Source: Chloroflexota bacterium
Lineage (GTDB): Bacteria; Chloroflexota; Anaerolineae; Anaerolineales; UBA11579
Direction of reading: 5' to 3'
Length of the DNA: 64,000 nt
Assembly (NCBI GenBank): GCA_023485685.1
Contig: JAMCZK010000054.1
Span: 2,440-66,439, forward strand
Every line of letters begins with the position of its first letter. Position 1 is the stretch's first letter. This document shows positions 12,569 to 20,196 of the stretch, in pieces. The position numbers and the translations under genes were made by a program. The notes under the pieces are model-generated. The model was not told where the DNA came from and ran no database searches. It saw only the letters and a list, made by a program, of their open reading frames with translations.

Positions 12569-15500
12569 ATGACGATCTTACTGACTAAGGTTCGCCCCCC
12601 GCAGCGTCGCAAAGATGTTTTGCGTCGTGTGCGCCTGGTCGATACCCTGCACCAAAACCTGCATCGCAAATTGACCTTCGTTTCTGCGCCGGCCGGATAC
12701 GGGAAGACCACCCTGCTGGTCGATTTCGCCGCGGACGTTGATGCTATTGTGTTCTGGTACCGGATTGGGGCCGAAGACAATGACCTGGTCCAATTTGTCC
12801 AACACCTCATTGCCAGCTTCCAACAAAAAGCCCCCCGTTTCGGAGTCGCCCTTGAGGAGCGGCTAAACACCATCGGCAGCGCCCCCGATGCACCATCGCT
12901 GGCCATCGATTTTATCAATGAGGTCGAGCAGAGAGTGGAGGACTTCTCGTTGCTGATCCTGGACGATTACCACCTGGCGGGTGAAAACCAACAAATCGTG
13001 GACTTCGTCGAAAACCTGCTCGAGCACCTGCCCGACCATTTGCGTATCCTGATTGGATCGCGCAGCGTCTATGGGATCCCGACGGCCAGCCTGTACGTGC
13101 GCGACGAGTTGGTGACCATCAGCGCAGACGAACTGCGCTTCCGCGCCGACGAATTGCAGAAGCTGGTGCTGCAGAACTACCGCATGCGGCTTAGCGACGA
13201 GCAAGCCGAGGAATTTTCCAAGCGGGCCGATGGGTGGATCGTGGCCATCTTGCTAGCGTTGCGCACCATGGAAAACGGGGTGCTGCCCAAACTGCGGGGC
13301 GGTATCAATAAGATTTATGAGTACCTGGCCAAAGAGGTAGTTAACCGGCAAAGTGCAGAGCTGCGTGATTTCATGATGGCCACTTCCATTTTGAATGATT
13401 TCAACGAAGCCCAGTGCAATTATCTTCTGGAAAGAAAGGATTCGACGTTGTTCTTGCGCGCGCTGGAGGACCGCAACCTCTTCGTGAGTCGCACAGAGAC
13501 CAACGAGGGCGCCAGCTACCGCTACCACCAATTGTTCGCCGAGTTCCTGCAGGATTATTTCTCCCGCAGCCAGGCCGACCGCCTGCGCGAACTGCACCGC
13601 CGCGCGGCAACCTGGCACCAGAAGCGCGAGGAATGGGAAGCCGCCATCGACCACAAGCTGGCGGCAGGCGACAAGCAGGAAGCCGCCGGGTGGATGGACG
13701 CGGTAGCCAATGATTTTTACGCAGCCGGACGCCAGACGCTATTAACCAGGTGGGTTTCTTCACTAGAGAAAACACCTAATTGTCTGCATTTTGCACCACA
13801 TCTGCTCTTATACCAGGCAAAAGCTCTAGGAAATCAAAGCGAATTTAAGGCCAGTTTGAAATTGCTTAATATCGCCGATCCAATACTTGTGCGCACTAAT
13901 GACAAGGAAGCATTAGCGAATGTAAGAATCACCAAAGGAATGATCAGCCGATTAACAGGTGATTTTCCGAAAGCGCTGGTTTTAGCAAAAGAAGCTCAAG
14001 CAATTCTTCGCGGGGACTCAAAACGCGTTCGCTACAGTCGACAATGGTATCAAGCAGAGAGATTGATGGCCATTCCCACATTAATTAATGGAGATACCCA
14101 AAAAGCAATTAACTATATTAATTCTGCAATCGAAGGTATTAGAAAATTGGTTGATTCCAGCGAGGGAGGTTTGAAAGCAATCTATAGGTATGACCTGGCC
14201 GAGTGCTTGAACGATGCTGGATTTATCCATCTTAATATGGCCGAGATGTTGGAAGCGCAAAAGGCTTTTCAGGAAGCTTTAAAAATCCATATCGATATCC
14301 ATAGCAACTTAGGGGCGCTTGCCTTGGCAAGGAATAACATCGCATATTTAGATCATCAAACTGGCCATTACGGTGAAGCCTGGCGAGAATATTCTTTGGC
14401 CTATGAACATTCAAAAGCAGCAAATCGCATTCGCGAACAAATCGGGATTCTCAACGGTCGCGGAGAACTCATGCTGGAGCTTAATGAAGTCGAGGAGGCG
14501 CTCACGAATTTTCAGGCTGCATTAAGTCTTGGCAAGCAGTTTGGCGAAAAACCGGAATTGGCCTCCACTTATTTGGGATTGGCAAAACTCGAAAGAATCC
14601 GCGGCCAGCATCAGGAAGCCATTACATGGTTGAGAAAAGCGGCCAGCTTTCCAGGTAATCCGTTGGCAAGTGGCGAGTATTCAGTTGAGCTAGGCACTAT
14701 TTATGATGCAATGGGACAACATGACCTTGCCCTCAAACAGTTTCGGACTGTTTTGAATAAACCGGGCAGCGGGAAAGCCCCTACACAAACAGAAATCCTT
14801 GCAGCATTTCTGGCCGCGCGAACGCTCTTTAGAGAAGGCAATATTAAGAAGGCGGAGTCACTCCTGTTCGAAGCTTTGGAGGGTGCTGCCAGACTTGGTC
14901 ATGACCAATTTTTAGTCACAGCAGCCCGCACAAGCTTAGATTTCCTGGAAGCGGTAGTGCTTGCATCCCCAACTACACAACTCAAATCGCTTTTCGATCG
15001 GGCAATTAAATTCGAAACAGGCAAAGCTGCGCTCGAACTAGAACCAGTTATTAATCAGGTCCCTCAGATCCATATCGAAGTCAGAGCATTTGGGCAAGGA
15101 GAAATCCGCGTCAATGGAGAGTTGTTACCCGCCTCCGTGTGGAGATCCAGCAGGGCCCGCGGGTTGTTCTTCTACATTCTCGATCGCGGCAAGGCGCGTA
15201 AGGACACTATCGGATTGGATTTCTGGCCAGATTTTAGCGCCGGGAAAATCAGCAGCAATTTCCATGCAACTCTATGGCGAGTCCGCCAGGCCCTCGGATT
15301 TAAAGACGCGATTTTGTTCGAGGGCGATCAATACAGCCTGCACCCTTCCATTCAAATCTGGTACGACGTGAATGAATTTGAACGCTATCTCCATTCGGCC
15401 ACCAAACCCAACCTGACGGATGCCGAACGCAGTGAAACGCTGCGCCAGGCGATCAAACTATATCAAGCGCCCTATTTACAGGATCTTTACATGGAATGGG

Positions 15501-15802
15501 CAGATCGAAGGAGGGAAGAGTTACGCAATGGGTACCTGGAAGCCCTTTCCCGCCTAGCGAAGATCGAAAGCCAGGAAAAACGTTTTGGCGAGGCAAAGAA
15601 ATTGTATGAACGAATTGTCTCTGTGGATCCGTATCGCGATGAAGCCCATCTATCGCTGATGAAATGCCTGACTCTCTCCGGCGCGCCTTCGGCTGCTATC
15701 GCCCATTTCAAGAGGTACAAGTCTTTGCTGCGCAAAGAACTGAATTCCGAACCCCTGCCGGAATTGCAAGAATACTATGAAACGTTGACCGTAAAGGCTT
15801 AG
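12569..15802 (+). CDS. Large STAND-type transcriptional regulator: MalT-like P-loop NTPase, TPR region, C-terminal OmpR-type wHTH plus BTAD (SARP-like)
   Basis: 1077 aa. N-terminus LLTKVRPPQRR...FVSAPAGYGKTTLL, LLILDDYH, ADGWIVAILLAL (MalT-N pattern). Central TPR-like repeats. C-terminus VRAFGQGEIRVNGELL...NFHATLWRVRQALG (wHTH), then WADRRREELRNGYLEAL...DPYRDEAHLSLMKCL (BTAD). Confidence 0.85.
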   Translation: MTILLTKVRPPQRRKDVLRRVRLVDTLHQNLHRKLTFVSAPAGYGKTTLLVDFAADVDAIVFWYRIGAEDNDLVQFVQHLIASFQQKAPRFGVALEERLNTIGSAPDAPSLAIDFINEVEQRVEDFSLLILDDYHLAGENQQIVDFVENLLEHLPDHLRILIGSRSVYGIPTASLYVRDELVTISADELRFRADELQKLVLQNYRMRLSDEQAEEFSKRADGWIVAILLALRTMENGVLPKLRGGINKIYEYLAKEVVNRQSAELRDFMMATSILNDFNEAQCNYLLERKDSTLFLRALEDRNLFVSRTETNEGASYRYHQLFAEFLQDYFSRSQADRLRELHRRAATWHQKREEWEAAIDHKLAAGDKQEAAGWMDAVANDFYAAGRQTLLTRWVSSLEKTPNCLHFAPHLLLYQAKALGNQSEFKASLKLLNIADPILVRTNDKEALANVRITKGMISRLTGDFPKALVLAKEAQAILRGDSKRVRYSRQWYQAERLMAIPTLINGDTQKAINYINSAIEGIRKLVDSSEGGLKAIYRYDLAECLNDAGFIHLNMAEMLEAQKAFQEALKIHIDIHSNLGALALARNNIAYLDHQTGHYGEAWREYSLAYEHSKAANRIREQIGILNGRGELMLELNEVEEALTNFQAALSLGKQFGEKPELASTYLGLAKLERIRGQHQEAITWLRKAASFPGNPLASGEYSVELGTIYDAMGQHDLALKQFRTVLNKPGSGKAPTQTEILAAFLAARTLFREGNIKKAESLLFEALEGAARLGHDQFLVTAARTSLDFLEAVVLASPTTQLKSLFDRAIKFETGKAALELEPVINQVPQIHIEVRAFGQGEIRVNGELLPASVWRSSRARGLFFYILDRGKARKDTIGLDFWPDFSAGKISSNFHATLWRVRQALGFKDAILFEGDQYSLHPSIQIWYDVNEFERYLHSATKPNLTDAERSETLRQAIKLYQAPYLQDLYMEWADRRREELRNGYLEALSRLAKIESQEKRFGEAKKLYERIVSVDPYRDEAHLSLMKCLTLSGAPSAAIAHFKRYKSLLRKELNSEPLPELQEYYETLTVKA

Positions 15803-20000: not shown

Positions 20001-20196
20001 AGACGGTCTACGCGCCAACGCCATCCCCAAGATTGCCCGCATAATCAGCGTTGCGGATGCCTACGTGGCGATGACTGATGAGCGCGTCTACCGCAAAGCC
20101 CGCAGCCATGAGGCAGCACTAACCGAAATCCGGCGTTGCGGCGGGACTCAATTTGATCCGGCTGTGGTGGACGCTTTCCTAAAGACATTTAGTTAG
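17044..20196 (+). CDS. Multi-GAF (about 4) HD-GYP protein, probable c-di-GMP phosphodiesterase
   Basis: 1050 aa. Repeated GAF modules are separated by ENARLFE..RRQLQELT(L/V)LH linkers. C-terminal HD-GYP motifs HSQRLADLA, LLHDIGKIGVPD, HQERFDGTGYPDGL. No obvious RBS at 17044, so the start is uncertain. Confidence 0.88.
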   Translation: MLLASFKGQDPLKSKDLTRGGESRRQDASGAEGNHTEELAALALAGASIVSSLELGKVLQVVAQQFANLLDVQVCILADWRPNPGGIKAHTTFVNPRAPKLPRGYKPSSLAESLGLTQVVEQTRPVQKRSDDPLLPEKEKRAFKKTGITSLLLLPLIAQSKTTGLVELQDTRGPRDFSEREIYLAQTLCQQAAIAIENARLFEATRRQLQELTLLHQVSMAATEATNEDELIERATQLIHENFYTDNFGILLLEKDGTELHEHPSYKSGKLQGRLTIPLGRGVTGQVASLGVSLRVGDTRKDANYLNYDADSLSELCVPLKIGGRVIGVANAESKKLNHFTEKDERLLLTLAGQLASGIERLRNAAAERQRAKQLGVLNKLAGEMSGVLDREKLFKVVVERLNKEMNYVSTDISRVDEESREYVVEAVSGTFAPLVSKEGYRQSFGVGLLDIAAKSGEPVVANNVHEQPNYKLVAGHEMINSELIIPIKIYKRVVALLNIESNELNAFDKYEVTALTTLCDQISIALEGISLFDSTRRQLQELTVLHAITHAAVNAKDEDDLLERATEIIGASIYPDQFGFLMLDEDAQFLTVNRCYRGVNGELHGRKFAVSQGIAGQVAATGKPWRVPDVSKEPNYFLVNPSMRSELCVPILGNGNRVLGVINAESGQLDAFTEADMRLLNTIAGQLGTAIEKLRLFESEQKQREQSETLREVAAILGSATDSSRVLDLILDQLKRVVPFDSASVQILKEDSLSIRAVAGTLDPSIIGYELPIKDDKLAHPMLYEHRTVLYEDIANHPDWLHAPGVSGVKSWIGAPLIVRGECIGVLTVDGYEAHQFSAADAQLVSSFAIHAGIALENARLLEEAEDAYVQTVSALASAIDLRDSYTSGHSQRLADLAVRIGQQMGCEDEELEAIRWGALLHDIGKIGVPDDILRKPSSLESHEMEIMRQHPEIGARIVERVKNLTAVAPIIRAHQERFDGTGYPDGLRANAIPKIARIISVADAYVAMTDERVYRKARSHEAALTEIRRCGGTQFDPAVVDAFLKTFS

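Follow-up and report, generated by a model that had tools for sequence, protein, structure and literature searches.

A conserved four-gene cassette of uncultured Chloroflexota as a candidate regulator/peptide signalling system

We analysed a 64-kb stretch of contig JAMCZK010000054.1 (the window), which comes from the genome of an uncultured member of the Anaerolineales (Chloroflexota). The subject of this work is a cassette of four genes at 12569-20196: a large transcriptional regulator (REG) is followed by a small glycine-rich peptide, by a protein of 71 amino acids (aa) that we call S71, and by a phosphodiesterase with GAF and HD-GYP domains (GAFHD). According to the listing of open reading frames (ORFs), all genes of this interval lie on the plus strand, as had been stated in the original prediction, which was made from the letters of this DNA. 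The window carries a tandem duplication of the peptide-S71 module, and the peptide gene of the first module has decayed. The features of the locus are collected in Table 1; related loci and proteins are designated by L and P numbers, respectively.

Table 1. Features of the cassette, in positions of the window; residue numbers are those of the encoded protein. RBS, ribosome-binding site; wHTH, winged helix-turn-helix.
Feature	Position	Strand	Description
REG	12569..15802	+	1077-aa STAND regulator: MalT-like NTPase/arm, TPR sensor, SARP-like C-terminus
REG domains			NTPase and arm, aa 1-480; TPR, ~aa 441-830; putative wHTH, aa 831-932; BTAD, aa 933-1072
REG TPR sensor region	13889..15058	+	hypervariable part
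REG intrinsic terminator	15867..15896	+	9-bp stem then T-run; fold -16.4 kcal/mol, z -2.27
Direct-repeat box	15905..15924	+	GCTCATAG-CTGC-GTTCATAG; two 8-nt repeats; predicted SARP-domain site of REG
-10 element	15934..15939	+	TAGAAT, 9 nt 3' of the box; TAnnAT kept in alignment
pseudo-PEP1	15959..16110	+	decayed first peptide gene; RBS GGAGG 15959-15963, ATG 15970, TAA 15973
Exact repeat, copy 1	16093-16408	+	copy 2 is 16683-16998
S71a	16189..16404	+	71-aa all-helical protein, weakly similar to the NHLP / LigA-like clan
GC-rich hairpin after S71a	16417..16439	+	without U-run; counterpart of the S71-GAFHD hairpin in most relatives
Degenerate box copy	16445..16463	+	ACATAG-CTGTGG-TCTAG, remnant of the tandem duplication, before PEP2
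PEP2	16509..16700	+	intact, 63 aa; MCNSIKIS then four units; RBS GGAGG 16498-16502
Exact repeat, copy 2	16683..16998	+	spans peptide tail, spacer and whole S71
S71b	16779..16994	+	identical to S71a
GAFHD	17044..20196	+	1050 aa; five GAF domains and HD-GYP (aa 877-1041)
GAF domains of GAFHD			aa 45-200, 225-360, 390-530, 556-693, 728-859

The N-terminal 480 residues of REG are homologous to MalT, with a match of aa 6-484 to the NCBIfam MalT family (E 5e-75) and of the protein to the PDB structure of MalT (8bob, E 1.8e-34). The Walker A segment reads PAGYGKTT, the sequence LLILDD occurs at aa 128, and WHD_MalT is annotated in orthologues of REG. As in MalT, a helical-repeat sensor follows, in which Pfam finds TPR_12 and TPR_MalT. 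Unlike MalT and the LAL regulators, however, REG has a DNA-binding part of SARP/BTAD type instead of LuxR type, and its presumed ligand is a peptide instead of maltotriose: the C-terminus is a BTAD domain (PF03704, E 1.4e-21, aa 933-1072), and Pfam gave no match to a GerE/LuxR-type HTH in REG. A profile of eight orthologues matches, in the PDB, the SARP of AfsR (8hvr, E 1.7e-9) and EmbR (2fez, E 4e-4). The roughly 90 residues before the BTAD domain (aa 831-932) are strongly conserved and contain an invariant motif, FWPDFS....SNFHATLWRVR.A, that looks by eye like a SARP recognition helix; position and sequence pattern lead us to infer that this segment is the SARP wHTH. The predicted make-up of a MalT-like P-loop, TPR and C-terminal wHTH-BTAD therefore stands for the parts matched by profiles (MalT, TPR, BTAD), with the wHTH left undetected by them, and the matches in Pfam, NCBIfam and the PDB bear out that the order NTPase-TPR-SARP is the opposite of that in AfsR.

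In GAFHD, Pfam identifies five stretches of GAF_2 (E 4.4e-88), which we also compared by self-BLAST, and a C-terminal HD_5 domain (PF13487, E 6.9e-38). The size and the HD-GYP domain are as predicted, and the GAF domains number five and not about four. Both the HD motif (HDIGK, aa 923) and the GYP motif (aa 984) are intact, and GAFHD would thus degrade cyclic di-GMP (c-di-GMP).

The duplication of the peptide-S71 module has left an exact repeat of 300 nt at 100% as called by the search tool, whose identity extends to about 316 nt by inspection of the sequence. S71a and S71b are still identical despite the duplication, which suggests that the copies are kept so by gene conversion. The ORF at 15938-16141, originally taken for a first peptide gene, is a decayed pseudogene: the ATG at the conserved RBS runs directly into a TAA stop, the repeat remnants are out of frame, the sole ATG of their frame (15938) shares bases with the -10 element, a second frameshift against PEP2 affects the 3' end, and a single intact unit-like motif is left, at 16040. 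The same ATG-TAA defect is present in the close relative L019. Of the two predicted modules of peptide and 71-aa protein, both S71 copies stand, and PEP2 is the only intact peptide gene. In L002 (9183-10216), three tandem S71 copies are accompanied by two peptide genes, of one unit (26 aa) and of three units (54 aa), and the peptide immediately behind the box promoter has been lost; as in the window, the module appears to duplicate and decay repeatedly.

The intergenic region 3' of REG has the same layout in all loci, namely REG stop, terminator, repeats, 9 nt, TAnnAT, about 20-40 nt, GGAGG and peptide ATG. A hairpin with T-run is kept at the terminator position in 17 loci, with a sequence that differs between loci. 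It is followed by a box of two direct repeats, G(C/T)TCATAG, at 15905-15912 and 15917-15924, 12 nt from start to start. No -35 hexamer is found at this promoter, where the repeats overlap the -35 position. In an alignment of 17 loci the repeat cores are invariant and their surroundings vary. The exact pattern YTCATAG-N4-GYTCATA has a single occurrence in the 64-kb window, and 30 loci contain exactly one such match each, which lies 3' of REG and 5' of the peptide gene in those inspected. It is quite likely that REG binds this box through its SARP-like domain. Before PEP2 only the degenerate copy of the box is present, which does not match the box pattern even when two mismatches are allowed; PEP2 is therefore probably transcribed from the upstream promoter by read-through across the U-less hairpin at 16417-16439. 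Between S71b and GAFHD, terminator and fold scans of the window found no terminator.

As the original prediction implied, this neighbourhood is conserved. The order REG, peptide, S71, GAFHD recurs in about 45 loci; it is kept in 19/19 loci of species-representative genomes, as far as the contigs reach, and all 13 genuine peptide genes recovered from metagenomes stand, contig permitting, in the arrangement REG-peptide-S71. These 13 come from a scan with a degenerate DNA pattern of two units, which replaced a protein-profile search for the peptide that had given 9 matches only (glycine-rich words saturated the candidates, and the ORFs are rarely called); about 90% of the 120 matches of the scan were chance or other-frame matches and were filtered by translation. 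The order is also largely kept in six further lineages, which were found by an S71 profile search with contig look-ups and in which S71 is 41-56% and REG 35-50% identical to the proteins of the window. Common to these divergent lineages are a regulator of MalT-WHD/TPR/BTAD type with about 1040-1075 aa, a gene for a small peptide, and S71. Five of them also have a GAF-containing gene next in line, and this gene encodes a one-GAF HD_5 protein where the contig reaches.

In the main clade, to which the window belongs, the flanks of the cassette are syntenic too (DegV, thymidine phosphorylase, QueA, RuvB, UPRT), as would be the case if the four genes had no functional link and were neighbours by regional synteny in one bacterial family. 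However, the same four genes and the promoter box are kept in cassettes with unrelated flanks in several of the divergent lineages, where enough flanking DNA is available: cupin/LDH/MFS genes in one context, SMODS and LexA upstream with DUF624 and a CoA ligase downstream in another, and a sugar-binding regulator in a third. Moreover, the DNA-pattern scan for the peptide gave, context permitting, this arrangement alone, the exception being an outlier group on contigs of about 1 kb. An explanation by synteny alone, which we hold to be scarcely credible, was rejected on finding the cassettes with different flanks. Because the four genes are kept amid completely different flanks, the cassette is a unit and not mere local synteny.

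The four units of PEP2 start at 16533, 16575, 16617 and 16659, a tandem repeat with a period of 42 nt. Each unit of 14 aa follows the pattern ANQPLSGGIGGxPx, or (A/F)(N/C)QPLSGGIGG with a spacer of 2-3 aa (unit forms ANQPLSGGIGGDPH; core PLSGGIGG). In 68 units from 17 orthologues, the first two codon positions of the motif P-x-G-G-G-[IV]-G show no variation, and the third has an entropy of 1.0-1.7 bits. This pattern indicates that the peptide is translated and that selection acts on its amino-acid sequence and not on a DNA or RNA repeat. A known RNA was rejected as the source of the repeats, as an Rfam scan of 15700-17150 at E <= 1 gave no match. The variable residues are identical across the units of one gene and differ between genomes (QPL, QPT, QPC, QPV, YPM, YPI, HPI, RPV). 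Throughout the main clade the peptides have no hydrophobic segment and carry 1-5 tandem units, usually 4. The 42-nt array varies in length among close relatives: L142 and L143 (9738-9956), which have identical S71, carry 5 and 4 units, respectively. Two further readings of the units were considered and dropped. Processing of the units at a double-glycine site by a C39 peptidase does not fit, since the hydrophobic residue stands at -3 and not at -4 and no C39 transporter is linked; nor do RTX repeats and the prion octarepeat (PHGGGWGQ) agree with them in period and conserved residues.

A second kind of repeat peptide, of 77-95 aa (P0054-P0058), was found on contigs of about 1 kb (L020 640-927, L021 158-433). 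It has a conserved N-terminal extension of 37 aa (MDARHYHPKSLAQLRTDALTR.AYP..VLAAVLQ), followed by 3-4 units HP[VM]GGG[VI]GS. On these contigs we could find no adjoining REG or S71 and no repeat box; in L020 the repeat peptide is flanked by an FkbM-like methyltransferase (upstream) and a membrane protein (downstream). This is the sole context found outside the cassette.

Between the box and S71, the six divergent lineages have a gene for a product of 47-60 aa with a charged N-region and a hydrophobic core, whose maximal Kyte-Doolittle hydropathy over 15 residues is 2.3-3.4. In five of them a small-x-A site (four A-x-A, one V-F-A) is followed by a glycine-rich tail, as in ...PEIAQA/GPSSGGAR, ...PESALA/GPTPGVTGG, ...PETALA/NPSWGGATG, ...PEAVFA/APSPGSVGG and ...SGIAQA/DLTGGGIGGQ; the form in L147 has a transmembrane segment and then ...DVPPLGGGIGGG. 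The tail is 8-12 residues long over L144-L156, and 8-10 aa in the five lineages with a small-x-A site. Such precursors appear to have the layout of Gram-positive pheromone precursors, and their tail is the motif that the window repeats four times (PLSGGIGG). They point to an unmodified peptide of pheromone type.

Some divergent loci contain small additional ORFs. One of 58 aa with two hydrophobic stretches resembling transmembrane segments lies between S71 and the phosphodiesterase gene (L144 3952-4128, L146 944-1120), and one of 55 aa follows the phosphodiesterase gene (L147 9077-9244, L148 4462-4629). It is possible that these encode an accessory for export or processing.

A first search for S71 returned 53 close homologues with 66-99% identity, and those with a named source are all from Anaerolineales or Chloroflexi. 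S71 has no match in Pfam, and Foldseek found no fold match for its AlphaFold2 model (pLDDT 79, five helices). It shares its size class and its N-terminal pattern (..A.A.LD..F..A.L.G....L..F.L..EE) with the Os1348/NHLP proteins (PF14407, NF038399). The description of S71 as "leader-like" in the original prediction is accordingly backed by a weak match to the Os1348 family NF038399 of the NHLP clan (E 1.4e-4), which at 21.9 bits lies below the cut-off of 40; the match to the Os1348 crystal structure 6lk7 is likewise sub-threshold (E 0.07). In Pseudomonas sp. Os17, the gene of the small antibiotic-related protein Os1348 adjoins putative modification genes (PMC7726476).

These matches are the starting point for reading the locus as an orphan cluster for a ribosomally synthesised and post-translationally modified peptide (RiPP), in which S71 would be an NHLP-type leader or precursor, the repeat peptide a multi-core substrate, and the maturation enzymes would be encoded elsewhere. 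The setting of Os1348 beside putative modification genes agrees with it, identical tandem units recall multi-core precursors, and among the 194 S71-like cluster representatives that an exhaustive profile search collected at E <= 1e-3, many have variable C-terminal tails (20-50 aa in the wider relatives), and wider relatives also give weak matches to Frankia_peptide. However, both Os1348 matches fall below curated or usual thresholds, and S71 is 66-100% conserved over nearly its whole length. Across 26 sequences it has 12 invariant positions and 9 nearly so, a variable end of only 6-8 aa, and neither a core peptide nor a double-glycine (GG) site. Unlike NHLP precursors, it lacks a variable core and is always paired with REG and the peptide gene; unlike Os1348, it adjoins no acetyltransferase, peptidase or SagB-type gene. 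The repeat peptide, with its conserved unit core and variable spacers and flanks, shows the opposite of what RiPP precursors show, and the Sec-type signal peptide and small-x-A site of the sister lineages would mean ordinary secretion and not leader-guided modification.

Nor could we find the enzymes of such a pathway. Among the larger ORFs at 249-39475 and the annotations of syntenic relatives there is no YcaO, radical-SAM, lanthipeptide synthetase, peptidase or ABC exporter gene, as the original prediction had noted, and no maturase, protease or exporter occurs in the divergent contexts examined. Domains similar to S71 are also fused to a response-regulator receiver (P0149) and to an IrrE/M78 peptidase domain (P0205), where they behave as signalling modules, which suggests that S71 works in protein interaction or regulation and is more than a leader; the NHLP or "Frankia peptide" fold seems to be employed both for RiPP leaders and for signalling. 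A RiPP origin is in our judgement very improbable, and the label "orphan RiPP-like" of the original prediction does not survive the finding of a separate conserved protein with no core or GG site, no linked maturase, and precursors with signal peptides.

We propose instead that the locus is a self-contained and previously undescribed regulator/peptide signalling cassette and not a natural-product cluster, a reading to which we give an even chance. A side-by-side dimer of REG would bind the two G(C/T)TCATAG repeats, which would stand in for a -35 element, and would activate the peptide gene and S71 and, by read-through, GAFHD. The TPR sensor of REG would have as its cognate ligand the glycine-rich peptide unit (P-x-G-G-G-[IV]-G, which reads PLSGGIGG in the window), whose binding would close a positive feedback loop, as AfsS does for AfsR. 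The output would be the degradation of c-di-GMP by the HD-GYP domain, with S71 probably acting as a small adaptor or regulatory protein. In the deeper-branching relatives, a Sec-type signal peptide with a single unit would yield a secreted, quorum-sensing-like pheromone. In the clade of the window, where the peptide has no signal and carries the unit 4-5 times, it would act inside the cell like AfsS or leave it by an unlinked route; because PEP2 lacks an export signal, the loop of the window may be intracellular. The peptide-sensing circuit feeding into c-di-GMP turnover that was originally predicted thus gains considerably from the conservation of the cassette, the box promoter, the precursors with signal peptides and the fast divergence of the TPR region, and stays at the level of what sequences can suggest.

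The divergence of REG is mosaic. Between the window and L019, identity is 98% in the NTPase, 88% in the putative wHTH and 94% in the BTAD domain, and 63% in the TPR region, with a trough of 46-50% near aa 450-550. Synonymous divergence (pS) is 0.77 in the TPR region, 0.36 in the NTPase and 0.28 in the flanking thymidine phosphorylase gene. The TPR sensor diverges far faster than the ATPase and DNA-binding parts of REG, and this pattern with its high pS is suggestive of sensor alleles that are old and recombine, like those of pherotype loci. The units, too, differ among close relatives (PLSGGIGG, PTGGGIGG, PMGGGVGG). In a partial Mantel test on 21 loci that controls for the NTPase, the identity of the TPR region correlates with that of the peptide units (r = 0.26-0.33, p ~0.001), and the wHTH and BTAD regions are not significant in the same test. 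We regard this covariation as suggestive only.

The peptide could instead be just a product under the control of REG, with a structural, antimicrobial or metal-binding role, while the TPR region senses another ligand. The promoter and the adjacency of the genes show only that REG probably drives the peptide gene, the covariation is modest and is shared by the arm region, and the ligands of STAND sensors vary widely; MalT itself senses maltotriose. The unit P-x-G-G-G-hydrophobic-G also has a superficial likeness to the prion octarepeat, which binds copper. Against this, the fast divergence concerns the sensor and the variable residues of the peptide and spares the output genes, the clade of the window has no linked genes for export or processing, and there is the precedent of AfsR and AfsS, in which the repeat peptide beside such a regulator binds the regulator. 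As for a metal site, the x position is variable and there is no conserved His, Cys or Asp. On balance we find a mere product unlikely, and serious enough to be kept in mind.

A further possibility is that REG sets the expression of the peptide and that the units are ligands of the GAF domains of GAFHD, so that the peptide would regulate c-di-GMP hydrolysis allosterically. The GAF gene stands directly 3' of S71 in five of the six divergent lineages and in the main clade, with HD-GYP where the contig reaches, and the single-unit precursors pair with one-GAF phosphodiesterases while the multi-unit clade has five GAF domains. However, this contrast amounts to a single evolutionary transition, and within the main clade the units vary from 1 to 5 beside a full-length protein with five GAF domains (L002, L086, L018, L143); a one-to-one stoichiometry of GAF domains and units was rejected for this reason. 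GAFHD diverges fairly evenly between close relatives, none of its GAF domains being hypervariable, and the usual ligands of GAF domains are small molecules. We consider a peptide-binding GAF array improbable and keep to the cassette in which the peptide is sensed by REG.

Several points weigh against such a cassette. The arm region of REG gives a covariation signal similar to that of the TPR region; with BTAD and arm also controlled for, the TPR signal falls to r = 0.15-0.20 (p = 0.08 and 0.02); and partial Mantel tests are known to be anti-conservative. The wHTH cannot be detected with Pfam or PDB profiles: on the putative segment alone Pfam gave no match to Trans_reg_C even at E <= 10, and in the PDB profile search, which also missed it, the alignments begin at the end of that segment. 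Canonical SARP promoters have direct repeats 11 or 22 bp apart and 8 bp between the 3' repeat and the -10 element (PMC10936776), and the box, at 12 nt and 9 nt, is near-canonical and not canonical. In most relatives (L003-L018, L142, L144) a strong GC-rich hairpin separates S71 from GAFHD (for example L005 10217-10378 and L144 3857-3940), in L144 as a canonical terminator with T-run; in the window it persists only after S71a. The phosphodiesterase may therefore be only partly co-transcribed, or attenuated, and the hairpin may be an attenuator that sets the ratio of peptide and S71 to phosphodiesterase. In L151 and L152, S71 is followed by a converging gene in place of GAFHD.

Other such points concern the peptide, its traffic and S71. 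No export signal is seen in PEP2 (maximal 15-residue Kyte-Doolittle hydropathy 0.62), the signal peptides of the divergent lineages were judged by hydropathy and the -3/-1 rule only, and no gene for a transporter, a peptidase or an importer of Opp type is linked to the cassette in the window. The model gives no firm account of S71, although this protein is better conserved than the other parts of the cassette. Finally, all cassette-bearing organisms are uncultured and represented by metagenome-assembled genomes. Gene content, conservation of the cassette, promoter architecture, translation of the peptide and mosaic divergence of the sensor are seen in the sequences; the binding of REG to the box and of the peptide to REG, the phosphodiesterase activity and the secretion are predictions.

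The closest described system appears to be AfsR/AfsS of Streptomyces, a parallel that the original prediction did not draw. AfsS is a small protein of 2-5 tandem repeats whose transcription is activated by AfsR and whose repeats bind AfsR and strengthen its DNA binding (PMC10832544). The two systems have in common a large regulator with SARP, STAND-ATPase and TPR modules, a gene for a small tandem-repeat protein (4 x 14 aa in PEP2) behind a repeat box, and a box of two repeats that overlaps the -35 position (PMC10832544, PMC10936776). However, the modules of REG run NTPase-TPR-SARP and those of AfsR SARP-NTPase-TPR, the NTPase of REG is MalT-like, the repeats of the box are spaced by 12 nt and not 11, and the unit P-x-G-G-G-[IV]-G shows no apparent resemblance to the AfsS repeat. 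S71 and the GAF-HD-GYP phosphodiesterase are extra fixed partners, the sister lineages have precursors with signal peptides, and the cassette is found in a different phylum, the Chloroflexota, with no link to an antibiotic cluster.

RRNPP systems include Rap/Phr, NprR/NprX, PlcR/PapR, PrgX, Rgg/SHP and AimR/AimP. The cassette resembles them in that the gene of a TPR-containing cytoplasmic receptor adjoins a small gene for its presumed peptide, in the signal peptide and short C-terminal mature peptide predicted for the six divergent lineages, and in the pherotype-like diversification of sensor and peptide among close relatives. It differs from them in its receptor, which has a STAND NTPase and a C-terminal SARP (BTAD) domain and not an N-terminal Xre-type HTH or a phosphatase, in the absence of a linked Opp system or processing protease, in the signal-less fourfold repeat of the window peptide, and in its occurrence outside Bacillota. 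"RRNPP-type", the term that the original prediction used for TPR-containing regulators, thus holds as an analogy and not as a description of this receptor. Since defining features of each family were looked for and are lacking, the locus is not a member of the AfsR, RRNPP or NHLP families. Coupling of a cell-cell signal to an HD-GYP phosphodiesterase of c-di-GMP as output is also known from the Rpf/DSF system of Xanthomonas (RpfG). There, however, a two-component system detects a fatty-acid signal and the HD-GYP domain is joined to a receiver, while in the cassette this domain is joined to GAF domains and the coupling lies in the operon.

A limited literature search (RRNPP and Chloroflexi) turned up no peptide-based signalling in Chloroflexota, and the sole joint mention of RRNPP and Chloroflexi in it concerned a streptococcal Rgg regulator. 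The cassette might conceivably hold the first peptide pheromone of Chloroflexota and the first with an NLR-like STAND ATPase as receptor, with pherotype-like diversification and with wiring to c-di-GMP, and might record a transition from a secreted pheromone to a tandem-repeat co-activator; we put this forward tentatively, as rather doubtful. If it is true, the transition would lead from a secreted single-unit pheromone (a signal peptide with an 8-12-mer) to an intracellular, multivalent co-activator with 4-5 tandem units and no signal, a series that would inform the evolution of intracellular repeat co-activators and explain how repeat proteins of AfsS type could have arisen. The mechanism of AfsS was itself obscure for decades and was clarified only in 2023.

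If our reading is true, the cassette would be a compact module that is open to testing, made up of a single regulator, a 20-bp operator and a peptide of 8-14 residues. It would offer a candidate class of natural ligands for STAND/TPR transcription factors, whose ligands are mostly unknown, and a direct genetic link between peptide signalling and c-di-GMP turnover, in a phylum whose filaments occur in large numbers in activated sludge, sediments and hot springs. Should the reading fail, there would remain an uncharacterised but conserved operon whose predicted operator is clean.

The surroundings of the cassette were examined over the larger ORFs at 249-39475. These include a nucleoside ABC transporter, topoisomerase I, a nucleotidyltransferase, DprA, UPRT, a PAS-PAS-GGDEF protein, TIM, PGK, CofD, RecJ, glycosyl enzymes, a Ser/Thr kinase and an FHA-wHTH protein; by way of syntenic relatives, RimM, a KH protein, ribosomal protein S16, DegV, thymidine phosphorylase, QueA and RuvB could be added. 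The PAS-PAS-GGDEF gene (23308-24693), for a diguanylate cyclase, is found 3 kb 3' of GAFHD. Most main-clade relatives have it in synteny, L002, L006, L009 and L142 lack it, and it was not seen beside divergent cassettes; it is therefore probably unrelated to the cassette.

Two further groups of genes lie farther away in the window. At 36095-37944, a Ser/Thr protein kinase on the minus strand adjoins a 224-aa protein with FHA and OmpR-type wHTH domains, a pair that is EmbR-like without BTAD. At 53440-57791, an island of low GC content (38-44% against about 55% elsewhere) encodes an N6/N4 DNA methylase, a HerA/DUF87-type ATPase (676 aa) and a 445-aa protein without Pfam match. It lies downstream of a gene for a DEAD-helicase/HNH/MrfA-Zn protein on the minus strand (50047-52848) and looks like a horizontally acquired island of defence or restriction type.

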